NCBI GenBank assembly: GCA_964601325.1
Contig: CAZRNA010000003.1
Span: 4,629-68,628, forward strand
DNA length: 64,000 bases
Direction: 5' to 3'
Origin: an uncultured Candidatus Bathyarchaeia archaeon
Lineage (GTDB): Archaea > Thermoproteota > Bathyarchaeia > 40CM-2-53-6
Below the pieces are notes generated by a model. The model was not told the origin of the DNA, did no database searches, and worked only from the letters and a program-made list of their open reading frames with translations. A program made the position numbers and the translations under genes. Positions 8,684 through 56,369 of this stretch are shown here, piece after piece (within the stretch, counting starts at the first letter, position 1; every line of letters begins with the position of its first letter).

Positions 8684-9046
8684 TCAGGGGTCGCGAACGA
8701 AATGGGGCATTTCCCGTGGGATTTCCAGAGAGAGTTCCATGAACCCCCGATATCTCTCATCCACATGCCATGGTGTTTGATAGATCAGTTTTCTGACGCC
8801 ATTCTTCTCTATTGTGTAGGCGTTTGCTTGGCGATTGTCCATCAGCTCTTTGAGTTTCGTGCGGGCTGGTTCAGGGTGACAAGCCCACAAATTGGTGCCG
8901 ATCAGTTTTTCCCCGCCTTGGTCACGGAAGTCCTCAATGGCCTTATCGTTTAACTCGATGATGGTTCCAGTTGAGTCGCAGACAGTGATTGCGCCTGGGA
9001 ATTCCTTTACCCATGTGTGACCTGAAGTCCCGCTCATTGATCTCAA
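8684..9046 (-). CDS. Small PAS-like sensor domain protein
   Basis: 120 aa. ITVCDSTGTIIELNDKAIEDF...GTNLWACHP...GVRKLIYQTPWHVDERYRGFMELSLEI resembles a single PAS fold. Confidence 0.4.
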   Translation of the reverse strand: MRSMSGTSGHTWVKEFPGAITVCDSTGTIIELNDKAIEDFRDQGGEKLIGTNLWACHPEPARTKLKELMDNRQANAYTIEKNGVRKLIYQTPWHVDERYRGFMELSLEIPREMPHFVRDP

Positions 9047-9158
9047 CCCATCCTAGGTGCAGTTCAGTTCTGAAGAACATTTACCGGTTATTTGGCTTCT
9101 GTGCAGGCCATTGGACTCACCTATGAGAAGCGTCTAGCGTTGTGTTCTCTGCGCTGGC

Positions 9159-9710
9159 TCATCTGTGTAGCGTTTGTGTTGTGTGCGTTGTGGCGTGCAC
9201 AACCCGTGCTGACCCACTGAAGTCCTTTGATGACGACGATTCTGCTGATGTACACGGAGGAAGGCAGACTTGGTCGGCGTTGTCCAGTAACCGGATTAGT
9301 TCGTCAGCTACTTCAGTCACGTCTGCCTTCTGGGACACTACCACCTTCGCGCAGCCGGCTTCTCTGGGCACTTCGATTTCATAGTGTGAGCCCTTATCCG
9401 TGACGGAGTAGCGGACGCCTCGAAGCAGGTCTGTCACTACGTACACGTCGCTGGTGCTATCTTTGAGTGTCTGCAATTCCATTTCGGTCACCTCGAAGGG
9501 AAGTCTGGCCATTGGTTTGTTGGAGAGCCCCACTAACCATTGATTCCTCTGGAGTTGCTCGGCGGCCTCCGGTGGAGTCCAAGCCTTCGAACGGTCAAGC
9601 GTCATGTTCAATGGAACCGCACGAATGAAACTCAGTTTGAACTCGTCGATCTTCGGCAGGTACGAGCCGACGATCCCGAGCTTACGGATCACGTTCGTTG
9701 CGATGCTCAT
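9159..9710 (-). CDS. Hypothetical protein
   Basis: 183 aa ORF with a coding-like composition. No recognisable motif. Confidence 0.35.
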   Translation of the reverse strand: MSIATNVIRKLGIVGSYLPKIDEFKLSFIRAVPLNMTLDRSKAWTPPEAAEQLQRNQWLVGLSNKPMARLPFEVTEMELQTLKDSTSDVYVVTDLLRGVRYSVTDKGSHYEIEVPREAGCAKVVVSQKADVTEVADELIRLLDNADQVCLPPCTSAESSSSKDFSGSARVVHATTHTTQTLHR

Positions 9711-9870
9711 TCACATCACCACGGGAAGCATACTACATCGAACTGACGGTTGTGTCTTCTACCGTCGTATGATGGTGACTTTGAGTCGTCGTATGGTAAG
9801 ATCGCGGTCCCGTCCTATGACGGCACAGAACTTATCTTCCAAGAGCGTACCATGAAACTGATGTTCGGCA

Positions 9871-10602
9871 ATGTTCGAGGTTGCATTCAGGGTTCAGCAC
9901 GACTGCCCATACACCAGGTTCACCGTGAAGCACCCGGAAGTTCGAATAACTATGTGGTGCAACAATCGGATACATGTGATGGAGGTCGACGTGCCCGACA
10001 TTGAGACTTTCACGAGGATCGAACCAGACCTGAACGAACTTCTCCTTTGGAAGGGTGGAAAGATTCTGAAGAAGAACTTTCTTGCGGGGAACCTTCAGCT
10101 CATCGTCAGATCCTGCAGCTGCAGCAAGATCCAAACCAACGTATTGTCAATTGTGGAGAGAAATTCCTGCTTATCGATTCCTCCTGAAGTCTACTACGAA
10201 GGCTGGGAGGAGTACAGAGTCGTAGGGTTCAGGGAGAGTGATTACAAGAAGATGTTTCAGGAACTGCACCGGATTGGCCAAGTGAAGATAATCCAGAAGA
10301 GGGTTGCTGCCGAGAAGAGCATCCGTGATACGTTCGTCGTCTCTCTGAACAGTGTCTTCTCGCAGCTAACAGAGAGACAGGTGAACTCCTTGATTGCAGC
10401 TCTGGAGGCTGGCTATTACCAGATCCCGAAGAAGGCGACGACAACGGAGATTGCTGGCAGACACAAGGTTCCTCGAACAACATACGAAGAACACCTCCGG
10501 AAGGCAGAGAGCAAAGTGGTCCAAGCCATCGCGCCATACGTTAGGCTTTACACGTCAGGCGTGAAACCGCTTGAGCAAGTGCTGCAAATCCCGACAAGGT
10601 GA
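9871..10602 (+). CDS. HTH_10 (bacterio-opsin activator-type) transcriptional regulator
   Basis: 243 aa. C-terminal LTERQVNSLIAALEAGYYQIPKKATTTEIAGRHKVPRTTYEEHLRKAESKVV is the HTH_10/Bat-type helix-turn-helix. Confidence 0.7.
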   Translation: MFEVAFRVQHDCPYTRFTVKHPEVRITMWCNNRIHVMEVDVPDIETFTRIEPDLNELLLWKGGKILKKNFLAGNLQLIVRSCSCSKIQTNVLSIVERNSCLSIPPEVYYEGWEEYRVVGFRESDYKKMFQELHRIGQVKIIQKRVAAEKSIRDTFVVSLNSVFSQLTERQVNSLIAALEAGYYQIPKKATTTEIAGRHKVPRTTYEEHLRKAESKVVQAIAPYVRLYTSGVKPLEQVLQIPTR

Positions 10603-10634
10603 CAAACGGGTTCAAGGGCATGACTCGTCGTACC

Positions 10635-10960
10635 AGACGCTAGGATGGTCGTTCTGAGTCCCGGCCGGCGATCGAGCGGCGTGGTAAACACGGGCTGGGC
10701 GCGGGCTATCAGGTTCGCCCGTCTCTGTAGTCAGTTACCATGCCTGCCCCTAGAGGGGGGTGGTTCCTACGCGCTAGAGCATAGAAACCGGGCTGGTCTT
10801 GCGTGGGCTACAGGCGCCTCTCGCTGTATCTCGATAAGCCTCAGACATCATCAGGGCGCATATGTCCGTAATCATCGCAGGTCCAGCAGGCGGCGTCGTA
10901 AGCAGCTACTGACAGATACGCAAGACTGCAGCGATGTGGCATCTGACGGCTGTACGGCAT
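10635..10960. ncRNA. Candidate structured non-coding RNA (GC-rich block; possible RNase P RNA-like element). Identity unconfirmed
   Basis: About 60% GC in a roughly 52% GC background. The only ORF is an Arg-rich artefact (10645..10986). Many short complementary segments. 'CAUAGAAACCGGGCUGG' resembles the RNase P P4 3' strand (ACAGAAaCCGGGCUUA), with a partner 'GAGUCCCGGCC' upstream. Confidence 0.25.
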
Positions 10961-10968
10961 GCGCGCAC

Positions 10969-11334
10969 TTACTGCTTCAAGTCTAGTAACCTGTTGAGTC
11001 GTTCGTAGATTGGTCTAGCGAAAGTTCCCGCTTCCAGGCTCATGACGATCACATACTCCGGCGTCTTGAAAAGCATCAGGGTGAGCGTCTGAAAGCATAG
11101 TAGCGAGTACCTGATCGTGCCGATATGATCCTTCAGTTTGTCGGCGATTCCGAGTATGATCTCCGGGAGGAATTGGATGAACTCTCTGTCTTGCTCGCCT
11201 GGTGTGATTGACTTGACGCCTTCCCTCATGCGTGATTCCTTGATCTCGTAGTCTGGTCCGGGGCTAACTATGCCGACGTATCGTATGTTCTTGTCAACTG
11301 AGAATATCGTTTCGACTAGCTGCGTTGGCTCCAT
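10969..11334 (-). CDS. Hypothetical protein
   Basis: 121 aa. No clear family. Confidence 0.4.
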   Translation of the reverse strand: MEPTQLVETIFSVDKNIRYVGIVSPGPDYEIKESRMREGVKSITPGEQDREFIQFLPEIILGIADKLKDHIGTIRYSLLCFQTLTLMLFKTPEYVIVMSLEAGTFARPIYERLNRLLDLKQ

Positions 11335-11479
11335 GATTAGAAGGATGGTCGAAGCACAATAAAAACGAAGCCGTAGCCCTCAGTTTGAGAAGGTGAATCT
11401 CAGGGTTCTAAGGGTCAACCGACAAGACTAATCGTGTCGCAGACGGGATGTTTAAGCTAGACTTGCGCCCACGCTAGAT

Positions 11480-11815
11480 TTGAGCCGGGTTTATGGTTTG
11501 GCCTCTTCTCGCGACGTGGCGGGTAACCTAGTTCTGGCTGTTGACGAGGCGCTGCTGGTTCCCGGTGAGATTGTGAAGACGGCTATCTACGAGCGTGTCG
11601 AGCGGAGCTACCAGCTTAGGCGAGAGGAGATCCCTGAGAAACTTGAGACCTTCCACCGAGCGCTACGGGACTTGCTTGGTGAAGGCGGCAAGGTGATGGA
11701 GATGCTGATCGTGAGAAACCTCTATCGCCGTCTTGGATTGAGCTTCGAAAAACATGACGGGCGGACGCTAGTCGATTATGTGAATCATGCGAAAACATCT
11801 GCGGGAGGTCATTGA
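11480..11815 (+). CDS. Small hypothetical protein upstream of and overlapping the histidine kinase gene
   Basis: 111 aa. Overlaps the kinase ORF start by 29 nt. No recognisable domain. Confidence 0.35.
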   Translation: MSRVYGLASSRDVAGNLVLAVDEALLVPGEIVKTAIYERVERSYQLRREEIPEKLETFHRALRDLLGEGGKVMEMLIVRNLYRRLGLSFEKHDGRTLVDYVNHAKTSAGGH

Positions 11816-14800
11816 AGAAATGGAAGACGACTCGACATATTCTAAAGAAGTGACCCCTCAGGAGTCACAGGGGAACAAAGCGAGAGGAGAAATGTACGGT
11901 CTGCTGAAGGCGGTGAATGACGTACACCGGGCGCAGCTGAAAGCCAACAGCGAGGCTGATTTCTTCCAACAGATATGTGATTCCATCAAACGAGTAGATT
12001 ATGTCAGGTTCGTTTGGATAGGTCTCGCGGAGAAAGGGAGCTTTCAGATTAAGCCTGTCGCTTCTGCAGGGTTCGAAGATGGATATCTCTCCTCGATCCG
12101 TGTTGCCTGGGATGACTCTGAACACAGCCGAGGCCCTACCGGCATGGCCATCAAGACTGGCCAGCCATTCGTGATGAGAGATATGACAACTAGTCCCACT
12201 TATTCTCCTTGGAGAAAAGAGGCCCTGAAGAGAGGCTACGCGTCCAGCGTTGCTCTGCCACTGATTCACGAGGGAGAAGTGATTGGCGCCCTCAATGTGT
12301 ATTCCGAGAGAAAGGATGCGTTCGGAGACCAAGAAGTCCAGTTTCTAAGCGCAGTAGCTCAGGACGTCGCTCTGGGCGTCAGATCACTAAGGTTGCGTAT
12401 GAACCTCCGAGAGAACGAGGCCAAGTATCGGACACTGGTCGAGCAGTCGCTGCAAGGAATCCTGATAGCTCAAGGTTCACCTCCTCGCCTAGTCTTCGCT
12501 AACCCGGCTATGGCGAAGATCTTGGGGTATACTCCTGATGAATTGATGTCCCTCTCACCTGAAGAAGCGGAGGGGCTGGTACACCCTGAAGACCGAGCGG
12601 TCTTCTTTGGCCGTTTCAGTGATCGGCTGCAAGGAAAACCTGCGCCGCCACGATACGAGGTCCGCGGAATCCGCAAAGATGGCGAAACCCGCTGGCTGGA
12701 CTTCTCCTCAACCAGAATCGAGTACAAGGCAGAGCCAGCCGTGCAAGCAGCATTCGTAGACATCACCGAACGCAAGCGGGCGGAGGAGGCATTGCGGGGG
12801 AGCGAGGAAAGGTATCGAGGGCTGTTTGAGGAGGCAATGGACGGCATCGCACTGGCCGACGCTGAGACCGGTATCCTGCTTGACTGCAATCAGGCGCTGG
12901 CGGCTTTGGTTGGCAGGAATAGGGCAGAGCTGATCGGGCATCATCAGGCCATTCTGCACCCCGCGGACAGCGATGACAGTGCGCTTTCACCAACATTCAG
13001 GCTGCACGCGACCACCCGCGAGGGGCAAGTGCTGGAAACGCAAGTCATCACCGCCACGGGTGAAATCAGAGAAGTGGAAATCAAAGCCAGCTTGCTGTAC
13101 CTCCAAGGAAGGAAAATGCTGCAAGGCATATTCCGTGACATTACTGAACGCAAGCGAACGGAAGACGAGCTGCGTCGCCGGGCCGAGGAGCTGGCTGCGC
13201 TTCAGGCGACCGTCTTGGATATTACATCTCGCCACGACCTGGCGGGTCTTCTTGAGACGATCGTGGAGCGAGCAGCTCGACTGCTAAGAGTCTCAAGTGG
13301 AGGTATGTACCTCTGTGATCCGCAGAAGAGGGAAGCACGCTGTGTCGTCTCCCACAAGACACCGTACAGCGTCAAGGGAACGGTGCTCAAGTATGGAGAA
13401 GGTGCGGCGGGGGCGGTCGCCGAGACTGGAAAGCCACTGCTGATTGATGACTACCGTACTTGGGAAGGTCGAGCTGCTGCATACGAGGAAGCGAAACCCT
13501 TCGTTGCGGTCCTAGGCGTGCCCGTGATCTGGCGAGGACAAGTTGTGGGAGTGATCGACGTCCTCGACGATACACCTCAGCACTTCACGAAGGCAGACCA
13601 GGAGCTTCTCACTCTCTTCGCCAATCATGCGGCGATTGCGATCGAGAACGCGCGACTGATGGAGCAGGAGAAGCGCCACGCCGAGGAGCTTACACGTTAC
13701 TCCACAAACTTGGAACAGCTGGTCTTTGAGAGAACAGGTAAGCTAGCGGAAAGCGAGAGGAGATTCAGGGAACTGGCGGACCTGTTACCGCAAATTGTAT
13801 TTGAAATTGACGCCAAGGGAAATTTCACATTCGTCAATCGTGTCGCGTTTGCGACTACAGGTTACAAGGAGCAGGATGAGGAGAAACTACGTGAAAGTCT
13901 GAATGCACTTCAGATGTTTGCCCCAGAGGACCGCAGCAGGGTCATGGAGAACATGAGTAGGATTTTGGGCGGAGAAGCGCTTCCTGCCGGAGAATACATG
14001 GTTTTGAGGAAAGACGGCAGCACATTTCCCGCACTCGTGCACTCCAGTCCAATAATCCAGAACGGAAAGCCTGTGGGCTTGAGAGGCATTGTCATGGACA
14101 TCACGGAACGCAAGCGGGCGGAGGAGGAGCTTCGTGCCACTAGAGAGCAACTTGAGTATCTTGTCACATCGAACCCGGCCGTAATCATTAGTGGTAAGCC
14201 TCTCGCAGATTACTCCGATTGGCACCTGACATACATCAGCAAGAGCGTCGTTGCACTGCTTGGCTTTGAGCCTAAGGATTTCGTTGGTCATCCCGAGTTC
14301 TGGGACCGTCATGTTCCCCCTGAGGACGCACGCTACGTTCTAGCTGAGATACCTCTTCTCTGGAAGAAAGGACAGCATGCATTCGAGTTCCGGTTTCTGC
14401 ACAAGGACGGGACTTGCCGGTGGATACGTGAAGAGGCGAGGGTGGTTCGTTATGTCGATGGTAAGCCGATTGAGGTCAACGGATACTGGACTGACGTCAG
14501 TGAGCGCAAGCGCTTGGAAGAAGAGCTTGCCAAGTCTCAGAGGCTTGCCACAATCGGGGAAACGGCATCGATGGTGGGTCACGATCTCAGAAACCTACTG
14601 CAAGGGATCGCAGGCGCCGTGTACTATCTCGCAACCAAGGAGCGCCCAAAGCTCAGCAGAAGGGGGAGAAAGATGCTTCAACTGATCGAGGAAGGCATAG
14701 GACGTTCTGACAAGATCATAGACGACCTCTTGGAATACTCGAGGGAGTTGCGCCTCGAACTGTCCGAGACCAACCTGAAACCAATCATAGAAGACGCCCT

Positions 14801-15221
14801 GGCAAAAGTGAAGATTCCAAAAGGAATACGCGTGGTCAACTCAACCAAGAACCAACCATCCATGCGGCTGGACTTGGAGAAGATGAGACGAGTCTTCCTG
14901 AACCTCACAGTGAACGCCGTTGACGCCATGCCCAAAGGAGGCACACTTACAATCACAAGCACTCGATCCGGCGACAACGTTGACATAACCTTCAAAGACA
15001 CAGGAGAAGGAATGACAGCAGAAACCTTGGCGAAGCTTTGGAGCCCACTATTCACGACCAAGGCGAAGGGGATGGGCTTTGGCCTACCTGTCGCTAGACG
15101 CCTTGTCGAAGCACATGGGGGCTCGATCAGCGTCGAAAGCAAACTTGGGAGGGGATCAACCTTCACCGTGAGGCTTCCGATCAAACGTGAATTGGAAGGA
15201 AAAGAGGTGAAGAAGAAGTGA
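11787..15221 (+). CDS. Multi-domain sensor histidine kinase (GAF-PAS-PAS-GAF-PAS-PAS-HisKA-HATPase_c)
   Basis: 1144 aa. Two GAF-like blocks and four PAS blocks separated by recurring 'DITERKRAEEEL' seams. H-box 'MVGHDLRNLLQGI'. G-box 'KDTGEGM'. Confidence 0.9.
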   Translation: MRKHLREVIEEMEDDSTYSKEVTPQESQGNKARGEMYGLLKAVNDVHRAQLKANSEADFFQQICDSIKRVDYVRFVWIGLAEKGSFQIKPVASAGFEDGYLSSIRVAWDDSEHSRGPTGMAIKTGQPFVMRDMTTSPTYSPWRKEALKRGYASSVALPLIHEGEVIGALNVYSERKDAFGDQEVQFLSAVAQDVALGVRSLRLRMNLRENEAKYRTLVEQSLQGILIAQGSPPRLVFANPAMAKILGYTPDELMSLSPEEAEGLVHPEDRAVFFGRFSDRLQGKPAPPRYEVRGIRKDGETRWLDFSSTRIEYKAEPAVQAAFVDITERKRAEEALRGSEERYRGLFEEAMDGIALADAETGILLDCNQALAALVGRNRAELIGHHQAILHPADSDDSALSPTFRLHATTREGQVLETQVITATGEIREVEIKASLLYLQGRKMLQGIFRDITERKRTEDELRRRAEELAALQATVLDITSRHDLAGLLETIVERAARLLRVSSGGMYLCDPQKREARCVVSHKTPYSVKGTVLKYGEGAAGAVAETGKPLLIDDYRTWEGRAAAYEEAKPFVAVLGVPVIWRGQVVGVIDVLDDTPQHFTKADQELLTLFANHAAIAIENARLMEQEKRHAEELTRYSTNLEQLVFERTGKLAESERRFRELADLLPQIVFEIDAKGNFTFVNRVAFATTGYKEQDEEKLRESLNALQMFAPEDRSRVMENMSRILGGEALPAGEYMVLRKDGSTFPALVHSSPIIQNGKPVGLRGIVMDITERKRAEEELRATREQLEYLVTSNPAVIISGKPLADYSDWHLTYISKSVVALLGFEPKDFVGHPEFWDRHVPPEDARYVLAEIPLLWKKGQHAFEFRFLHKDGTCRWIREEARVVRYVDGKPIEVNGYWTDVSERKRLEEELAKSQRLATIGETASMVGHDLRNLLQGIAGAVYYLATKERPKLSRRGRKMLQLIEEGIGRSDKIIDDLLEYSRELRLELSETNLKPIIEDALAKVKIPKGIRVVNSTKNQPSMRLDLEKMRRVFLNLTVNAVDAMPKGGTLTITSTRSGDNVDITFKDTGEGMTAETLAKLWSPLFTTKAKGMGFGLPVARRLVEAHGGSISVESKLGRGSTFTVRLPIKRELEGKEVKKK

Positions 15222-15697
15222 AAGAACAGGAACAGGCGAGGATTCTCGTCATAGACGATGACGTGACCGTACGCAAGTCGCATGAGACTGTGTTGAAGGC
15301 GAACGCATACGAGGTCGACGTCGCCGAAACCGGTAAGGAAGCAATCGCGAAAACCAAAGCGAAACTCTACAACCTAGCATTAGTCGACCTCCGCCTGCCA
15401 GACATGGACGGCATAGAACTATTGACGGCCATGAGAGAAACCATACCAAAAACGGTTAAGATCATCATAACAGGCTACCCTTCACAGGAGAACGCCATAG
15501 AAGCCGTAAACCGAGGCGCCGACGGATACATAGTCAAACCATACACCATGGAAGACCTGCTACGGAAAGTGAAGGAACAACTGCAGAAGCAACAGGAAGC
15601 TAGGAAGTTCAGTGAAGAGAAAGTCAAAGAATTCATTGAAGCGCGCGCTGAAGAATACGAGTCAAGAACCTCAGCGAAAGGCAAACAGAAAAAGTAA
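15218..15697 (+). CDS. Response regulator, receiver domain only (CheY-like)
   Basis: ARILVIDDD...LALVDLRLPDMDG...IIITGY...GADGYIVKP. Overlaps the kinase stop in an ATGA-type 4-nt overlap. Confidence 0.9.
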   Translation: MKEQEQARILVIDDDVTVRKSHETVLKANAYEVDVAETGKEAIAKTKAKLYNLALVDLRLPDMDGIELLTAMRETIPKTVKIIITGYPSQENAIEAVNRGADGYIVKPYTMEDLLRKVKEQLQKQQEARKFSEEKVKEFIEARAEEYESRTSAKGKQKK

Positions 15698-23423: not shown

Positions 23424-26420
23424 TTACGATGGTCTTCTTTCTGTAAGCGTGATTGTCAGCCGGCATGGCTTGCCATTGGAGGGAATTATGACCTCCCCAT
23501 CAGACAATCTGAGGTCAAATTCCTCATTCCCGTCATCTGAATTCATCTGCAGTATGCCCGGCAGGCTTTCGGAGTATCCCTCGCATGTAATCATGTGTGC
23601 CCATACCTTGAGCTCGCGAGACTGGCTTCCCGCTAATTGGACCGTGAGGCGACGGAGCGAAGGGAAGGATGGGATCTCTCGGGATGCGGCTTGCAGCTTC
23701 TCTTCCTTGTCGGGATACTGGAGCGAGACTTCCGCAGTCTTGGGCTGGCCACCTTCCGTGATGGCGAAGAACGCTCGTCCGCCTTCACATTGGTCTTCCT
23801 GCAGCTCAAGAGTCGTCCGCTTCACAAACGCCCCACGATGCGCCATCACTACAGTCATGCCCACTGTGAGAACTCCGATGAGAAGAGCCAGAGCGCGTGA
23901 TGGTAGGTCCTTCCAGATAACCAAGCCATGGAGGAAAAGGGTGGCCAGGAACAGGAGATACACACTCGCCGTGATCAGAGGATGACCAAGAAGTCTGTAG
24001 ACTACAGATGGCAGGCGCTCGCCCTTTCTGCGGCTAGCGATTATCAATAGATCCGGGAAGATCCCTCCTAGCAGCGGAACGAGAATGACCCCGATGAGGC
24101 CGAGCATTTGACTGAAGGAACCGGCTCCGGTGACGACGAGCCACTCGGTCAAGAGGAAGGCGGAGATCGCCGGGATCAGTGGCAGGTAGGAGCGCCCAAG
24201 TTTGCTCAGCATGACTTCTGTCACCCATTGAGAGAGACGTCCCCTTCCGACAAAACCGGTTTCAGTTCTTGCTGGTCGCTCTTCTTTCTCGAGTGCTTTC
24301 CAGATTTCTCCGGGAATCTTGCTTCCTCTCCTGAGTGTGAGAGAAAGCTGATAGCGAGTCTCACCGGTCCTTGCAGCGTCTTGTGACGCTTTCACGACGC
24401 CTTCAGATACCAACGTATCCAGCATGTTACGAATCTTCATCCCATCCTCGCCGAGATATGTCGCGGCCTCGGACGCGGTCACTGTTTGACGCTTCATAGT
24501 CCCCTGACGCAGAAGCCAGTTGACAAGCCGTCGCTGATCTTCAGGCAAGGCGACGAGGTCAGCCATCGTCAGGCCAGCGGTGTCCCACTCCCCCCTCGGA
24601 GTTAGCTTCAGTGACGAGTCAACGTGCACGAGAACACTCTCTTGACTTGCCTCCTGAACTTGCAGAGCCAGATAGACACCGTGTTTGCGGAGCGTCGGCA
24701 TTTCTTCGAGGATTGCGGTAGCGTTCCACGTTTCCGCGAAAGCCATGTGCGTGCGGTGAATAGTGCCGTTCGATTGGATGTCAAGGCGGAACTCAGGCTT
24801 GTCATCGCTGAGCCCGAGATACGTGAGGCTAATGCGAAGTCCTGCTCCTCGGGTGCCGCCTCTAGCGACCGCTCCCTTGTCGCTTAGGAGTAGGTGTCCT
24901 CTTTGGCGGGGCAATCTCACAACCACGTGCCTTCTTCGGGGAAGCCACTCGCGAGTCAGATTGAGGACTCCTAGCGCCGTGATGATCGAGCCCATGCCGA
25001 GTCCGAGAATGACGAGCAATGATCCAAACAAGTACACGATGGGACCGATTACGGCAACGAGCGGAACCAGTGCTGTGCCTGATTGACCTGCGAAGGCTTG
25101 CGGCGCCACGGCACCATTTGCTGCCAACACCCATACACAATAGATGACCATCGCCGCGGTCATCCCGCCAACTGCACCGAGGATCAGCGAACGCCCACCG
25201 GGGTCGCGGCGGAGTACAAGCTGAGCGCAGCTACTCAACGATGTGTGGCCGAAATAGGAGAACAGGACAACGCCGAAAATTACGTACAAGACCGAGGGGT
25301 CGAACGCGCGCCCACTCAAGACGGGTAGATTCACGTAAAGCAGATTTGCCGGTTGCAGGTGGCCGAACGCAAGGAGAGAGAGGATGAGAATTAGGGCAAT
25401 GGTGATCGCACCAACTACAATTGCAGAAGCCACAGTGGCACCGAGCGATCTGAAATGCACAAGATAAACGCTGACAAGGAAGAGTAGCCCGACCCACAGC
25501 TCGGCGCGTATTCCTGTGGTATCTCCTAGGGTGGCTGCAAAGCCGATGTAGTTTGCAATGAGGCCGAGCCAACAGATTGCGAATAGACTCGCTGCCAGTG
25601 TGAGGCTGCCGAGTCGCCCGAGGTAGTCCTGTGCAAGATGGCCCATGAAGGCGCTGCCGTAACGGATGCTTCCGTTGCGGGTGACCGCTTCGGACAGGAA
25701 AGCAATTGTCAACACGTTGGCTAAGCCCAACACGACCAGGATTACCACTCCAGCCAGAGGGCCGATACCGGCCAGCACGATTGGCAGAGCCAGATAGCCT
25801 CCCCCTACAGTCTCCGTCAGCGTCAGCGCGAAAGCAATCCAGAATGGTGGTAGGGAGTCGATCTGATTTCCAAACCGAGTCCAAGCCCATCGAATCGATT
25901 CGGTTACCCTATTACGTGTGGCAAAGACAGTGTCAATCGATTCACCGTACATTTGCTCGTAGGTCTGCTGGACTTGGTCCCCATCCAGCCCCAATGCTGC
26001 CCGAATTCCCTTTACATCCTGACGAGTGAATCTGTACTTCTTGCCCAGGATGTGGGCGAGGGCAGCTCGAATCTTGAAGTTGTCTGGTACTAGAAACGCC
26101 CATTGTGGTGCGTAGTGCTCCAAGTCTTGAATTGTTGGACGAAGCGGAGGCTCACGACCCAGGGCCACGGCTTCCAGAAAGGCTAGGCTACGCTCATCGG
26201 CCGCTTCCTGCGTGAGAAACCGTTCCATCGTTTGCCGGGATTGCGCCTTGTGCCGTGCCGTCCAGCTCTCAATAGCGAAGAGTAGCGTGCTCGCTCGTCT
26301 CGCTGGGAAGCCCTGCAACAATTCCTCGCGGTTGAACTCGGGCTCGCCGGATGGCAGAATGACCGTCACGTCCTTTCCTTCAAGAGTCCATACTTGCAAA
26401 CAAATATGAGTAGCTTTCAT
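23424..26420 (-). CDS. 998-aa chimeric membrane protein: N-terminal soluble domain + amino-acid-transporter-like 11-12 TM core + cytoplasmic winged-helix region + second TM block + C-terminal soluble domain
   Basis: 'TVGGGYLALPIVLAGIGPLAG...' is an Aa_trans/Trp-Tyr-permease-like signature. The internal 'LPEDQRRLVNWLLRQGTMKRQTVTASEAATYLGEDGMKIRNMLDTLVSEGVV' resembles a MarR-type wHTH. Many further TM helices follow. Confidence 0.6.
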   Translation of the reverse strand: MKATHICLQVWTLEGKDVTVILPSGEPEFNREELLQGFPARRASTLLFAIESWTARHKAQSRQTMERFLTQEAADERSLAFLEAVALGREPPLRPTIQDLEHYAPQWAFLVPDNFKIRAALAHILGKKYRFTRQDVKGIRAALGLDGDQVQQTYEQMYGESIDTVFATRNRVTESIRWAWTRFGNQIDSLPPFWIAFALTLTETVGGGYLALPIVLAGIGPLAGVVILVVLGLANVLTIAFLSEAVTRNGSIRYGSAFMGHLAQDYLGRLGSLTLAASLFAICWLGLIANYIGFAATLGDTTGIRAELWVGLLFLVSVYLVHFRSLGATVASAIVVGAITIALILILSLLAFGHLQPANLLYVNLPVLSGRAFDPSVLYVIFGVVLFSYFGHTSLSSCAQLVLRRDPGGRSLILGAVGGMTAAMVIYCVWVLAANGAVAPQAFAGQSGTALVPLVAVIGPIVYLFGSLLVILGLGMGSIITALGVLNLTREWLPRRRHVVVRLPRQRGHLLLSDKGAVARGGTRGAGLRISLTYLGLSDDKPEFRLDIQSNGTIHRTHMAFAETWNATAILEEMPTLRKHGVYLALQVQEASQESVLVHVDSSLKLTPRGEWDTAGLTMADLVALPEDQRRLVNWLLRQGTMKRQTVTASEAATYLGEDGMKIRNMLDTLVSEGVVKASQDAARTGETRYQLSLTLRRGSKIPGEIWKALEKEERPARTETGFVGRGRLSQWVTEVMLSKLGRSYLPLIPAISAFLLTEWLVVTGAGSFSQMLGLIGVILVPLLGGIFPDLLIIASRRKGERLPSVVYRLLGHPLITASVYLLFLATLFLHGLVIWKDLPSRALALLIGVLTVGMTVVMAHRGAFVKRTTLELQEDQCEGGRAFFAITEGGQPKTAEVSLQYPDKEEKLQAASREIPSFPSLRRLTVQLAGSQSRELKVWAHMITCEGYSESLPGILQMNSDDGNEEFDLRLSDGEVIIPSNGKPCRLTITLTERRPS

Positions 26421-26820: not shown

Positions 26821-27780
26821 TTACCTTTTTCTGATCGCAACGTAACATATCAGTATGACCGCGAAGACTGCGGAGACTACTGCTACCACGATCACGGGCC
26901 CGATGACTATCCCTTGGGGGGTTGAAATCTCACTATGCAGCGTAGCGCTCGTCGCGGCTGTTGCGGTTGTTGCCGTTGATGCGTTCCATGGAGGCGGGCT
27001 ATTTGGATCAAGGATGAGCGGCTGTCTTGGGGACTGGTTGAAGTCGAATTCTTCGGAGAAACTGTTTGCCATCGTGTCTCGGTTCGTCAGGCGTCTTAGC
27101 CCGAACTGGTTCTCGATGAAGGCCAAGTACGAGCTGTGTTCGTACTGCGTGTGGCTGATGTGGCCTTGCCTCGCATACGGTGAGATCAGCAGAACCGGTA
27201 CCCTGAACCCCAGGCCGTACTGGTCTACCTGTGGCGGCGGGACGTGGTCGTAGAAGCCTCCCCAATCATCCCAACCGATGAATATCGCAGTCTCCTTCCA
27301 GTATTGACTTTGCATGATGGTGTTCACGAGGGTCACCACGTACTTCTGTCCCACTTCGGGGCTCTTGGGAGGATGTTCACTCACGGCTCCTGCTGGCACA
27401 ATCCACGAGACCTGTGGTAGGCTGCCTGACTGTACGTCGTTGTAGAACTCGGATCCGGGGACATCGCGAGACAGCAACGAGGCATTGCTCATTATTCCTT
27501 TCATGTGCGGTAGCGGATTTGTGTAGTCGTAGAAGCTGGATTCGGGCTCATCGTGAGCCATCAGCTCAGGTTCGTTCGTTGTTGCTGCGCCTGGAAGGTT
27601 TGTTTCATAATAATACTTCCAACTTATCCCGGGTGACAATTCCTCCATTATCGTCTCGAAATCGAAGACAGCGGGAGGCTTGCCTTTCACATAACCGCCG
27701 GACTGGGCGGAGATGAGGTATAGATGGTTCGGGAGACTGAAGCTTAGAACAGAGTGGACGCGTTGTTGTCGCTTATACAT
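26821..27780 (-). CDS. Phosphoesterase family (phospholipase C/acid phosphatase AcpA, PF04185) C-terminal half with Thr/Ala linker and C-terminal TM anchor; N-terminally truncated
   Basis: [21 protein letters not shown]...[53 protein letters not shown]. The ENRSFDHYFG N-terminal metal site is absent and there is no upstream coding capacity. Confidence 0.6.
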
Positions 27781-28322: not shown

Positions 28323-29153
28323 TCAGGCGGACCGAGCGCGTTTGACGGCAACAAGTTGATTCAAGAGATCCTTGAAGAAGTCTGTGCCCATGATCTTCTC
28401 AGCCTCTTTTCTGACATGCTCTTCGTCGATCACAATTTCGAGCTTTGCCACTGTCGCCTCTAGGTCGGATGAGTATTTTCTCAATCTACCTATCTCGAGT
28501 TCGCGAATGCGTATCTCCTTTTGAGTAAGCTCTTGTTGAAGCCGTTCCTTCTCGATGGCCATATTTCGTTCCTTGGTTACGTTGCCGACGATGAAAGTGA
28601 ATATGGCCATGCTAATCGAGTTGGTCAGCGCCATTGGAAGATACAGGGCTTCAACGACTGAGACCGCCTGGCTGAACGGTTGCGCCATCACGAGCGTCAA
28701 AAGCATATGGAGCGTCTCCATGGAGAATGCGAAAGCTGCTGCCCATACGGGACCGATAAGCTTCTTCTTCGTCAGCCACACTAAGCCACCGAGCGTTCCC
28801 GAAATCACTGTTGACAGTGCCGAAGGGACAGCTGAGAACCCGCCCATGAAATACCTGTATGTACCGCCGATCAAACCGGCAGTGAAACCGATCAAAGGGC
28901 CCCCTAGCAGCCCAGCAATCATTGGCCCCGGGTCTCTGACATTGGCGATGGCTCCGAGGATCTCAACGCCGCTGTAGTTCCCCAGAATCGACATCGCAGA
29001 GAACATGGCCGTCGTAAGAAGGGCGCTCTTTGGCGTGATCCTGCGGTTGCATACGTCGAAGAACCAGTCTGTCCTACTCACAAGGTAGGCGACTATTGCG
29101 AAGACGGCCATCAACTTGACAAGTTCAACAAGAGTCTCGAATACAGTAGTCAA
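28323..29153 (-). CDS. Stand-alone 5TMR-LYT (LytS-type sensor membrane domain) protein with C-terminal coiled coil; no kinase domain
   Basis: 'GLLGGPLIGFTAGLIGGTYRYFMGG' matches the 5TMR-LYT GxxGGPxxGxxxG motif. The C-terminal 80 aa are heptad-like (ERLQQELTQKEIRIRELEIGRLRK). Confidence 0.55.
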   Translation of the reverse strand: MTTVFETLVELVKLMAVFAIVAYLVSRTDWFFDVCNRRITPKSALLTTAMFSAMSILGNYSGVEILGAIANVRDPGPMIAGLLGGPLIGFTAGLIGGTYRYFMGGFSAVPSALSTVISGTLGGLVWLTKKKLIGPVWAAAFAFSMETLHMLLTLVMAQPFSQAVSVVEALYLPMALTNSISMAIFTFIVGNVTKERNMAIEKERLQQELTQKEIRIRELEIGRLRKYSSDLEATVAKLEIVIDEEHVRKEAEKIMGTDFFKDLLNQLVAVKRARSA

Positions 29154-52285: not shown

Positions 52286-52663
52286 ATGATGAGCCGACGC
52301 TCTTGTGAAGGCTCATCTCGTCACCACATGAGACTATTGCTTGATGTCAACGATTGGGACAGGGGCTTCACAATCGGCTTCATTGGCGGACTAATCGATA
52401 GTGACGGTCACATCCAGAAAGGGAAGCGTAACGGTCACTACGGAGCAATAATCACTACGAGTAGCGCCTCCCTTGGAGACCAAGTCCGAGACTTGTGCAA
52501 AGCTCAGCACATCAACGTGCTATGTCGCCTGGATCGTCGGGGAAAGCCTGACGAGAGACCTCGATACATCATACGTATTCCATCGGGCGATCTAAACGGC
52601 CTGTGTTCAGAGTTGCTGTGCATGAAACATGCGAGGTATCATGGTGGGCCGGGCCGGATTTGA
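52286..52663 (+). CDS. Single-motif LAGLIDADG homing-endonuclease-like protein
   Basis: 'GFTIGFIGGLIDSDGHIQKGKR' matches the LAGLIDADG consensus (ΦxGΦΦDGDG + basic). The 3' end overlaps the tRNA-Val gene on the opposite strand. Confidence 0.5.
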   Translation: MMSRRSCEGSSRHHMRLLLDVNDWDRGFTIGFIGGLIDSDGHIQKGKRNGHYGAIITTSSASLGDQVRDLCKAQHINVLCRLDRRGKPDERPRYIIRIPSGDLNGLCSELLCMKHARYHGGPGRI

Positions 52664-52732
52664 ACCGGCGACCACCTGCGTTTCCTGGATGGCTGTCAGG
52701 CAGGTATCCTAACCAGACTAGACGACCGGCCC
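52642..52732 (-). tRNA. tRNA-Val (anticodon GAC) with a ~13-nt intron at the canonical 37/38 site; CCA encoded
   Basis: Reverse complement: GGGCCGG-TC-GTCT-AGTCTGGTTA-GGAT-A-CCTGC-CTGACA[GCCATCCAGGAAA]C-GCAGG-TGGTC-GCCGG-TTCAAAT-CCGGC-CCGGCCC-A-CCA. Confidence 0.55.
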
Positions 52733-54440: not shown

Positions 54441-56369
54441 CTACTTCAGCCTGATTGTTTCAAGGAGATCAGGCGCTATCGTTCTGACTTTGAACATTCG
54501 TGATGCTGCATGAGCGAAACTGTCTACTTTGTGTCGCTCACCATGCCCGACAATTATCTTGGTGGGTTTTGGCGAGATTCTGCGAAGGAATGCAAGTAGC
54601 TGATTCCTATCTGAGTGTCCGGAGAATCCCTCGACGCTCTCGATTCGTAGGTCGACTTTGATCGCTTCGATCTTTCCGTTTCGTCCCATCATTGAGACTT
54701 CCTTGACTCCGTTCTTGAGCCGGTTGCCTAGAGTTCCTTCAATCTGATAGCTGACGAAGAGCAAGACGTTCTTGGGATCCGACGCAAGTTGTTTGAAGTA
54801 ATCGATCGCTGGTCCGCCTTCCAGCATGCCGGATGTGGCCATGATTATTGCCGGTTGACCTGCCACTATTTGTTCCCGGTCGCCCGGGTGGTTGACCACT
54901 GTGAAGTAATCTGACTGGAACGGATTGACATCTTTGTGCAGCATCTGGTCTCGAAGCTCTCTCACCAGATATTCAGGGAAGGCCGTGTGAATCGCTGTGG
55001 CTTCGGAGATCATGCCTTCGATGTAGATCGGCATTTCCTTGATCGTTCCATTCTTCATGTAGCTATCCAGAACAAGCATGATTTCTTGAGCACGTCCGAC
55101 AGCTGGAACAGGGATCAAGACCTTGCCGCCCTTCTCGGCTGTTTCGTTCACGATGGTTGCGAGCTTGCCTTCTACATTCATCCTCTCAGGCATGACATCC
55201 TCCTGGCCACCATACGTGCTCTCAATCACGAGTGTCTCTGCTCGTGGGAAAACGCATGACGCTGGTTCGAGCAGCATTGTGCGGCCGAATTTGAAGTCGC
55301 CAGTATAGACGATATTGTGGTAGCCTTCGCCAATGTGGAGGTGGATGATCGAGGAGCCGAGTATGTGGCCTGCATTGTGTAGTGTTAATTTAATGTCGGG
55401 CGCGACGTCAGTGACCACGCCATACTTCAACGGGATCGTGTGCATCACTGTCTCGCGAACATCCTTCTGATCATACGGTGCGTGCACGCCCTCCCTGTTG
55501 TAGACATCCAAGAAGTCCAGCTGCAGCAGCGTCATGAGAATGGCCGTAGGTTCCGAGCAGTAGACGGGTCCGTCGTAGCCGTACTTGTAGAGGAACGGAA
55601 CGAAACCGCAGTGGTCGAGGTGGGCGTGTGAAATCACTACGGCGTCGAGTCTGTCGATATCGAATTCGTCTGAATCGATCTTTGGAAATGCGTGTGAAGG
55701 GTCATTTGAACCGGGGTTTATCCCCATGTCCAACAGGACGTTGCTTTCGCCGGTCTGGACGAGCATAGCGGATCTGCCAACTTCGTGAAAGGCTCCGAGC
55801 GGAGTGACGAAGACGCCGTCCCTCGTTCCTATCATTGGCCTGAAGATGCGTTCGCCCACATCTCGAAGTATGCGGTTCCTAGCCTCACTCTCCGAGTGGA
55901 GGATGTGTCTCGTGCTGGTGACGATCTTCGACGGCATAGGTGGCGCGCGCAGCACCCTAGGTCGCCAACTGGTGCTTCTGATGACCTCTTGAAGTGTCGA
56001 GCCGTCCTTCCCGATTGCAAGCCCAGGTTTCTTTGCTTCGATAGTCACTTCTCCGAGGGAAGGATCAAAGGTAATATTGATGATTTCTGCTTCCTGCGGG
56101 ATCGTGGATTTGATCATTTTCTCCGCTTCCGCTTCGGTTGCTCTGATAGAGGGGTCGGAACGTATGACGACGCGTTTGTGAAGCATGTTGACAATGTCGG
56201 TCACTACGTAACTCTGCTCCAAGAGGAGAACGACATTCTTGACGTAGATTGCTAGGCGGGGTCCTTCGAACTCGATTCTGGTAATCTCTGCTTCTTTGGG
56301 CATATTCGACAGGATGGTCTCGCGTATTCGCACGTGAGAATCGTCGATAGGCCTAGCCATTGAAGCCAC
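54441..56369 (-). CDS. aCPSF1 beta-CASP ribonuclease (N-terminal KH domains + MBL + beta-CASP)
   Basis: 642 aa. 'VISHAHLDHCG' MBL motif II. Tandem KH-like N-terminus. Beta-CASP C-terminal motifs. Confidence 0.9.
   Translation of the reverse strand: MASMARPIDDSHVRIRETILSNMPKEAEITRIEFEGPRLAIYVKNVVLLLEQSYVVTDIVNMLHKRVVIRSDPSIRATEAEAEKMIKSTIPQEAEIINITFDPSLGEVTIEAKKPGLAIGKDGSTLQEVIRSTSWRPRVLRAPPMPSKIVTSTRHILHSESEARNRILRDVGERIFRPMIGTRDGVFVTPLGAFHEVGRSAMLVQTGESNVLLDMGINPGSNDPSHAFPKIDSDEFDIDRLDAVVISHAHLDHCGFVPFLYKYGYDGPVYCSEPTAILMTLLQLDFLDVYNREGVHAPYDQKDVRETVMHTIPLKYGVVTDVAPDIKLTLHNAGHILGSSIIHLHIGEGYHNIVYTGDFKFGRTMLLEPASCVFPRAETLVIESTYGGQEDVMPERMNVEGKLATIVNETAEKGGKVLIPVPAVGRAQEIMLVLDSYMKNGTIKEMPIYIEGMISEATAIHTAFPEYLVRELRDQMLHKDVNPFQSDYFTVVNHPGDREQIVAGQPAIIMATSGMLEGGPAIDYFKQLASDPKNVLLFVSYQIEGTLGNRLKNGVKEVSMMGRNGKIEAIKVDLRIESVEGFSGHSDRNQLLAFLRRISPKPTKIIVGHGERHKVDSFAHAASRMFKVRTIAPDLLETIRLK

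Follow-up and report, generated by a model that had tools for sequence, protein, structure and literature searches.

The 64,000-nucleotide stretch analysed here (hereafter the window), part of a contig from an uncultured Candidatus Bathyarchaeia archaeon, encodes on its minus strand a 998-residue polytopic membrane protein and, two genes upstream, a sensor-type protein ending in a conserved C-terminal tail (Table 1). We tentatively propose that the former serves as membrane subunit in a conserved but so far undescribed system, a signal-coupled carrier whose uptake would be under post-translational control. An earlier note on this DNA had described a single open reading frame (ORF) whose one product joins an amino-acid-transporter-like core to an internal winged helix and to soluble N- and C-terminal domains; this held true, with the ORF on the minus strand, and the peptides quoted in the note were all located in the product (GGGYLALPIVLAGIGP at residues 206-221, LPEDQRRLVNWLLRQG at 625-640 and TVTASEAATYLGEDGMKIRNMLDTLVSEG at 646-674). 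The ORF product is matched exactly by P0001 (JGI, ENA and NCBI contigs), and a search of 5.8 billion proteins returned at least 929 relatives, the best 120 of which share 47-84% identity with the query, in nearly all cases across ~97% of its length, and are 946-1139 aa long. In comparisons with the closest two orthologs, from the Bathyarchaeia loci L008 and L009, the ratio of nonsynonymous to synonymous substitution rates (dN/dS) was 0.21-0.25 for the whole gene and 0.11-0.28 for each structured module, winged helix included (0.11-0.27 on its own). Because of these homologs, and because all modules are constrained, the ORF is not a chance one: the gene is real, intact and under purifying selection. 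A division into two adjacent genes or a frameshift, the outcome that the earlier note had itself named as fatal to its view, is ruled out by the one ORF, the full-length homologs and the purifying selection.

Translation probably starts at the GTG at nt 26369, giving a product of ~981 aa and leaving the first ~17 codons untranslated. Close relatives begin with MVILPSG or MIVILPS, and the first ~25 residues of the query face gaps in the alignment of relatives. A conserved AAGGAAAGG-N-GTG lies just ahead of codon 18, CTCTTGAAGGAAAGG-C-GTG is kept in three Bathyarchaeia loci with the sequence further upstream diverging, and the 82% identical protein P0004, whose gene lies at a contig edge, was called at 981 aa. 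Upstream of the gene, the archaeal loci compared displayed no conservation past the ribosome-binding site and start.

Hydropathy placed eight helices at residues ~196-490 and four at ~746-861, instead of the 11-12 and 5-6 that had been assigned to a first and a second membrane block. An AlphaFold2 model built from a 50-sequence family alignment, with a predicted local distance difference test score (pLDDT) of 74.9 and a predicted template modelling score of 0.70, agreed with these numbers and ordered the chain as a helical N-domain (residues 30-187), transmembrane helices (TM) 1-8, a β-domain (496-609), a winged helix (618-691), a linker (693-726), four TM helices (739-860) and a C-domain (867-991). 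The Pfam model Trp_Tyr_perm matched the native protein with 33.9 bits (cut-off 22) at profile positions 8-248 of 393 and, after in silico excision of residues 493-723, matched collinearly over positions 8-382 of 393 with 38.2 bits; excision had this effect in all five family members tried. Natural relatives of ~745 aa, which share 36-45% identity in the N-domain, the two TM blocks and the C-domain, are devoid of residues ~497-743 and have a TM8-TM9 loop of ~20 aa. Because excision gives a collinear Pfam match and insert-less relatives exist, both TM blocks are a single 12-helix LeuT-fold carrier of the Trp_Tyr_perm/Aa_trans type. The same two observations rule out the second block as an independent module: what had been read as a chimera of two membrane modules is one core, with the supposed second module as its TM9-12 and an insertion in a loop. 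In agreement with the LeuT-fold/APC superfamily, the model contains a 5+5 inverted-repeat helical core in which TM1 and TM6 are broken.

Fold and Pfam match are common to the window protein and the HAAAP/AAAP permeases (PF03222, PF01490; TyrP, Mtr, AUX1/LAX3). The contiguous 11-TM layout of those carriers, however, is replaced by 12 helices with a 247-aa two-domain insert between TM8 and TM9, and to this are added a ~165-aa N-domain and a ~130-aa C-domain found only in this family, as well as operon partners. The score against NCBIfam TIGR00837 (araaP) was 34.2 bits with a cut-off of 350, that of a related protein and not of a member. Among 169 insert-bearing members, the ligand-site signature of TM1, TLTETVGAGILALP, retains E202 in 90%, G205 in 92% and P212 in 100%, and that of TM6, FGxxLxAYFGH, retains G382 in 100% and H391 in 95%. 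As judged from sequence, the carrier would bind, and probably transports, an amino-acid-like solute.

Positive-inside counts combined with LeuT-fold topology predict that the N-domain, the insert and the C-domain are all cytoplasmic, the last because the extra TM12 brings the chain back. Hidden Markov models (HMMs) of the N-domain, TM1-8, TM9-12 and C-domain matched the window protein with E-values of 1.8e-83, 5e-142, 4.5e-55 and 4e-54, respectively, and in the family alignment the N-domain is as conserved as the membrane core. The C-domain was modelled with pLDDT 79-93 and has conserved residues E935, K937, W939 and H941. Neither this domain nor the β-domain (residues 493-612) had a sequence match in Pfam or PDB, and the possibility that the two are duplicates of each other was ruled out (hhalign probability 2.6%).

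The TM8-TM9 insert, ~247 aa long (residues ~497-743), consists of the β-domain followed by the winged helix. A MarR-like winged helix-turn-helix in an insert of ~230 aa had been proposed; the fold is confirmed, whereas the insert is longer and made of two domains. The winged helix-turn-helix fold is that of MarR/IclR-type regulators, with Pfam HTH_IclR matching 32 of 50 members and MarR_2 14 of 50, and PDB profile matches to Mnd1 and MarR proteins. This canonical fold, its constraint under purifying selection, the Arg-rich stretch after the wing (SLTLRRGSKIPGEIWKAL, family consensus R-L-A-x-R-R-G-R-x-L-P-x-x-I-W-x-A-L) and a disordered linker of ~34 aa C-terminal to it, which could give reach, would suit a membrane-tethered one-component transcription factor of the CadC/ToxR kind, with a loop winged helix that binds DNA close to the membrane, as governed by solute occupancy of the carrier; membrane-integrated DNA-binding receptors do exist (CadC: PMC7888679, PMC6320335). 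Classical DNA reading is nevertheless doubtful, because the recognition helix, as far as its sequence can tell, is acidic and variable. It starts with Asp or Glu in 53-72% of members, positions 659, 660 and 668 are Asp or Glu in 51-72%, the wing tip is acidic at positions 678, 680, 685 and 687, and the net charge of the domain averages -3.4 in the family (range -10 to +1). The basic, conserved recognition helix and wing of MarR/IclR proteins, taken as a sequence proxy for DNA contact, are thus not seen, and the residues conserved in at least 89% of members are mostly core hydrophobics, one glycine and R638. The domain is also tethered at both ends, flanked by the β-domain and the disordered linker within the loop of a membrane protein rather than forming a soluble dimer, and neither an IclR C-domain nor MarR dimerisation helices were found in the carrier (Pfam, AlphaFold2 model). 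No inverted repeat was detected ahead of the carrier gene, either in the window or in L008, which rules out an autoregulatory operator, and no conserved target genes were found. Since the insert is moreover missing from ~40% of complete clusters, the MarR-like DNA-binding regulator of the earlier note is not upheld, and we regard a tethered transcription factor as very unlikely.

Loop layouts were counted among 149 representative clusters. The TM8-TM9 loop carries β-domain and winged helix in 51 clusters (median loop 241 aa), no insert in 40 (20 aa), the β-domain only in seven (148 aa) and the winged helix only in three (123 aa), so that the insert is missing in 40 of ~100 complete representative clusters. 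By their loop lengths, these classes are real differences in content.

Gene neighbourhoods were surveyed in 79 loci from GTDB representative genomes, 78 of them with the N-domain gene, by unbiased ORF clustering followed by six-frame HMM scans (78 loci). The four contexts of family genes examined first had appeared unrelated to one another. A MinD/ParA-class ATPase of ~250 aa is encoded in 57 of the 78 loci, and in 49 of the 64 informative ones its gene immediately precedes that of the carrier in the same orientation, 14 loci having too little upstream sequence. The ATPase matches Pfam AAA_31, ParA and CbiA, remains below every NCBIfam cut-off, with archaeal MinD and KGGVGR-variant ATPases nearest and cellulose_yhjQ at E 6e-10, and has the Walker A motif R-G-G-T-G-K-S, in which Arg replaces the signature Lys. 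The ATPase is a distinct MinD/ParA-class subfamily. ORFs of 370-498 aa that looked like tail-ATPase fusions were discarded, their N-terminal parts being Arg-rich out-of-frame extensions, as was a neighbour cluster present in 23 loci, composed of spurious antisense ORFs of high-GC genomes.

Genes ending in a sharply conserved C-terminal module of ~45 aa (LRIEIDExKxxRQVAEITETDYFxxLxxKAxxLR), here called the tail, are present in 50 of the 78 loci, in 30 of which they immediately precede the ATPase gene. The commonest gene order, tail-ATPase-carrier, was found in 18 loci, including those of Patulibacter minatonensis DSM 18081, Patulibacter sp. NPDC049589 and Paraconexibacter sp. AEG42_29. The tail is found after REC (in the commonest form, ~235-250 aa), cNMP_binding, Cache-HAMP, HisKA-REC-HAMP, 7TMR-DISM-GAF or 5TMR_LYT domains, and since it ends otherwise unrelated proteins with such diverse inputs it has the behaviour of an output module, apparently an undescribed one. 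It has no Pfam or NCBIfam model, its motif strings are absent from the searchable literature, and a large-database search with it returned only 38 short fragments bearing generic automatic names. Hybrid histidine kinase genes abut the carrier gene in L060, L082 and L084 and are nearby in ~26 loci (raw counts).

The winged helix belongs to this tail-ATPase-carrier system, because it is also fused after a tail or encoded separately beside the ATPase. An 808-aa 7TMR-GAF protein (L067:135-2603) has the tail and then the family winged helix with its Arg-rich motif, and in L060, L066 and L077 the carrier is insert-less and the winged-helix module is encoded separately next to the ATPase. Outside the loop, winged helices occur before or after the ATPase gene or after the carrier gene, and may be either free-standing small proteins or N-terminal extensions.

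Two further arrangements were recorded among the surveyed loci. Carrier paralogs occur in tandem (L017:5986-8958 and 8970-11861; L072:6001-8190 and 9005-11227; L077; L047; L006, which equals L017), sometimes with a tail gene between them and, in L006, after STAS and HATPase_c_2 (anti-sigma-type) genes; such pairs may form hetero-oligomers. In Chloroflexota, a protein of ~1100 aa with a TLC/MFS-like membrane domain, HEAT repeats and a cNMP-binding domain is encoded beside the system (L052:5671-8994, L060:1640-4933, L068:1712-5152), and the L052 copy directly follows the tail gene and the ATPase gene, as if it were an alternative membrane target.

Table 1 Coordinates of the carrier gene, its modules and the associated genes. 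Unprefixed positions are those of the window; the others are preceded by the surveyed locus.
Feature	Position	Strand	Remarks
Carrier gene, maximal ORF, 998 aa + stop	23424..26420	minus	ATG-initiated, no interruption
Likely start GTG, codon 18	26367..26369	minus	Relatives' starts, conserved upstream stretch, P0004 length
N-domain, residues 26-190	25851..26345	minus	All-helical, predicted cytoplasmic, runs into TM1a; family hallmark
TM1-TM8, residues 191-491	24948..25850	minus	TM1 (VGGGYLALP) and TM6 (FSYFGH) discontinuous
β-rich domain, residues 493-612, first half of TM8-TM9 insert	24585..24944	minus	AlphaFold2, 9 strands
Winged helix-turn-helix, residues 616-692, second half of insert	24345..24575	minus	
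Basic motif SLTLRRGSKIPGEIWKAL and linker, residues 693-725	24246..24344	minus	pLDDT <50 for residues 693-726
TM9-TM12, residues 726-862	23835..24245	minus	Rest of LeuT fold and one extra helix
C-terminal all-β domain, residues 864-998	23427..23831	minus	AlphaFold2, 12 strands; predicted cytoplasmic
Partner gene, 5TM-5TMR_LYT sensor, 276 aa, coiled coil and tail	28323..29153	minus	Pfam PF07694, tail HMM
Tail module in partner gene, LEIVIDEEHVRKEAEKIMGTDFFKDLLNQLVAVKRA	28335..28469	minus	Tail HMM positions 9-53; ends 3 aa before C-terminus
ATPase genes, examples	L053:5211-5960; L049:5211-5960; L058:5213-5962; L009:439-1185 (minus)		53 further loci
Tail genes, examples	L035:3696-4826; L057:3653-4951; L053:5053-5211; window gene 28323..29153		~47 other loci
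Winged-helix modules outside the carrier loop	L066:765-995; L044:1313-1543; L067:6768-6998; L060:5745-5906		

Searches for literature on fusions of transporters with winged helices and on operons of MinD proteins with permeases returned nothing relevant. Nor did any paper or curated model turn up for the N-domain, the tail, the loop insert or the operon, an absence that, being limited to the searchable literature, is no proof of novelty; the suggestion that the gene belongs to an uncharacterised system is to this extent confirmed. It could also be argued that the protein is a plain nutrient transporter with autoregulatory cytoplasmic domains, serving for example feedback inhibition by an internal metabolite, and that the operon partners affect only its expression or localisation. 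Regulatory cytosolic domains occur in many secondary carriers, the core passes the Pfam Trp_Tyr_perm threshold, relatives are publicly annotated as amino acid permeases and nothing more, and the window copy has no ATPase gene at its side. Such a transporter would, however, have to accommodate ~550 aa of highly conserved cytoplasmic mass, including the N-domain conserved to the level of the core, a tight operon linkage to signalling proteins across phyla and a winged helix common to the carrier and a tail protein, and we consider this explanation improbable.

Within the window, two of the three core parts of the system are present, namely the carrier gene and a tail gene, and the minus strand reads 5TMR-tail gene, phosphoesterase gene (26821..27780), carrier gene. 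The six-frame scan of the window with the tail HMM gave one match at E<=10, reading LEIVIDEEHVRKEAEKIMGTDFFKDLLNQLVAVKRARSA and lying at the C-terminus of the partner protein (28323..29153), with E 2.5e-4. The partner protein is 69% identical to its ortholog in L009, where the 5TMR-tail gene is directly followed by the ATPase gene (E 1e-109), the pair being divergent from the carrier gene. Neither the ATPase nor a remnant of it was detected in the 64-kb window, with no HMM match at E<=10 and a best tblastn E of 0.78.

The neighbouring phosphoesterase (319 aa, minus strand) matches only the C-terminal ~190 residues of acid-phosphatase/phospholipase C models, and its gene lies roughly at the place of the ATPase in relatives. 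The earlier note had located the carrier gene in a block of degraded or odd genes; its immediate neighbours, which encode the phosphoesterase, an ABC substrate-binding protein and two Mem_trans carriers, are instead intact and have ordinary domain matches. A 1144-aa PAS/GAF sensor kinase (11787-15221, plus strand) and an overlapping 159-aa receiver protein (15218-15697, plus strand) are encoded ~8 kb from the carrier gene, which may be related to it or a coincidence. ARAGORN called a 91-nt tRNA-Gly with anticodon ACC at 52642-52732 (minus strand), the length and unusual anticodon of which suggest an intron-containing archaeal tRNA mis-parsed under bacterial settings.

In the LeuT fold, the inner gate is formed, and opened, by TM1a and TM8. 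The N-domain, running into TM1a, together with the insert after TM8 and the C-domain, would make up a cytoplasmic platform beside this gate, and because it is joined to both gate elements such a platform could control or report the transport cycle. In the signal-coupled carrier system that we tentatively favour, the tail protein and an ATPase dimer would dock on the platform, and docking would switch, gate or position the carrier. The signal would pass from sensor to tail, from tail to ATPase and from ATPase to carrier, and uptake would thereby come under the post-translational control of a two-component-type pathway. The winged helix would serve as a protein-docking adaptor of the platform and not as a sequence-specific reader of DNA.

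The same architecture could be used as a transceptor, a substrate-sensing role that the earlier note had considered. TM1a and TM8 would then move upon solute binding or during the transport cycle and so rearrange the N-domain and the insert, and the state of the carrier would be relayed to the ATPase, two-component partners or further targets in the cytoplasm, much as SLC38A9 relays it to mTORC1 or CbrA to CbrB. The conserved ligand-site motifs, the attachment of the N-domain to TM1a and of the insert to TM8, helices that flank the inner gate, and the hybrid histidine kinases downstream of or overlapping the carrier gene in L084, L060 and L082 and nearby in ~26 loci are all compatible with this. 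The proximity of histidine kinases, however, is a matter of raw counts taken without a genomic background, the tail partners have input domains of their own (REC, cNMP, Cache, GAF, 5TMR) and no other output, and no kinase, cyclase or other recognised output domain exists in the carrier. A transceptor is on balance unlikely, and because the tail proteins have inputs and no other output, while the carrier is devoid of a recognised output domain, flow from sensor to carrier is favoured.

Several observations weigh against signal-coupled control of the carrier as we propose it. Where the partners would dock, and in which direction information would flow, is deduced only from gene order and the logic of the domains. 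The window has no ATPase gene, so the archaeal copy may work differently, and its tail match is modest (15.6 bits), resting in part on orthology to L009. The best matches of the winged helix are to the DNA-binding families MarR, IclR and FabT, the winged helix of the window protein has a net charge of 0 and is not acidic, so that it may yet bind DNA, and the family retains one basic position in the recognition helix (R664, basic in 69%) and the conserved Arg-rich stretch after the wing.

Partial likenesses to this system are found in well-studied proteins. SLC38A9, the lysosomal arginine transceptor, has an N-terminal region that reports the state of the carrier (PMC9994763). That region is unrelated in sequence to the N-domain of the window family; SLC38A9 is moreover eukaryotic, lacks the loop insert, winged helix and C-domain, and has as partner a Rag GTPase complex rather than a MinD-class ATPase. 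CbrA and MxtR (CrbS) are sensor kinases with a transporter domain, and CbrA still transports histidine (PMC7918813); as in the family described here, a prokaryotic LeuT-fold carrier domain is physically coupled to signal transduction. Their SSS core is followed by a C-terminal STAC-PAS-HisKA-HATPase, whereas the window family has no kinase domain, has its additions at the N-terminus, in the loop and at the C-terminus, and relies on signalling proteins encoded by separate genes; no SSS, STAC, PAS, HisKA or HATPase_c domain was detected in the window protein or in 50 relatives. In the LysP-CadC pair, an amino-acid carrier works with a membrane-anchored winged-helix protein (PMC7888679, PMC6320335). 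CadC, however, is a separate protein with an N-terminal basic winged helix of the OmpR type, one TM helix and a periplasmic sensor, while the winged helix of the window family is acidic, of the MarR/IclR type and inside the carrier loop; the window protein, with 12 TM helices and an internal winged helix, had no Trans_reg_C match of the ToxR/CadC kind. BcsQ, acting with BcsR and BcsE in cellulose secretion, exemplifies a MinD-family ATPase as regulatory subunit of a membrane machine (PMC7840130). Like the ATPase described here, it is small, is encoded beside that machine and acts with signal-binding accessory proteins; the target in the present system is a secondary carrier and not a synthase, the ATPase is of the distinct R-G-G-T-G-K-S subfamily, and none is encoded in the window.

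The family spans at least seven phyla, Patulibacter minatonensis DSM 18081 included, and the surveyed taxa comprise Chloroflexota, Actinomycetota, Acidobacteriota, Binatia, Methylomirabilis, Cyanobacteria, Desulfobacterota, Bipolaricaulia, one Rhodospirillales metagenome-assembled genome (MAG) and two Bathyarchaeia. The nearest relatives of the window protein are in Bathyarchaeia MAGs. The contig itself is marked as archaeal by aCPSF1 (arCOG00543; 54441..56369, minus strand; 893 bits with a cut-off of 580). Composition gave no sign of a recent horizontal transfer, the carrier gene having a GC content of 0.561 and a third-position GC content (GC3) of 0.608, within the range of other window ORFs. 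Because the contig is archaeal and the family overwhelmingly bacterial, an old transfer from bacteria to Bathyarchaeia, of which no compositional trace is left, is suggested.

The regulation of secondary carriers is usually thought to be mainly transcriptional, and to our knowledge the cases in which a carrier is directly coupled to a signalling pathway are few, CbrA, SLC38A9 and LysP-CadC among them. To these the family would add a structured two-domain insert in a loop of the LeuT fold, a site usually thought to be little tolerant of insertion, as well as an N-domain and a tail with no relative in Pfam, NCBIfam or solved structures, two β-domains without sequence relatives, and a conserved operon in which a MinD-class ATPase is the link between response regulators or other sensors and a carrier. 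It is possible, if more speculative, that these parts form a new output route, in which diverse sensors act through the ~45-aa tail on a dedicated ATPase and an acidic winged-helix adaptor, fused or free, and through these directly on the carrier protein, in at least seven bacterial phyla from which it was passed to Bathyarchaeia. If true, this would be two-component-to-transporter signalling that bypasses transcription. The occurrence of the system in culturable Actinomycetota (Patulibacter, Paraconexibacter) makes the question directly testable, and, as regards annotation, the hundreds of proteins that currently go by "amino acid permease" or "HTH domain-containing protein" would have to be described more accurately.

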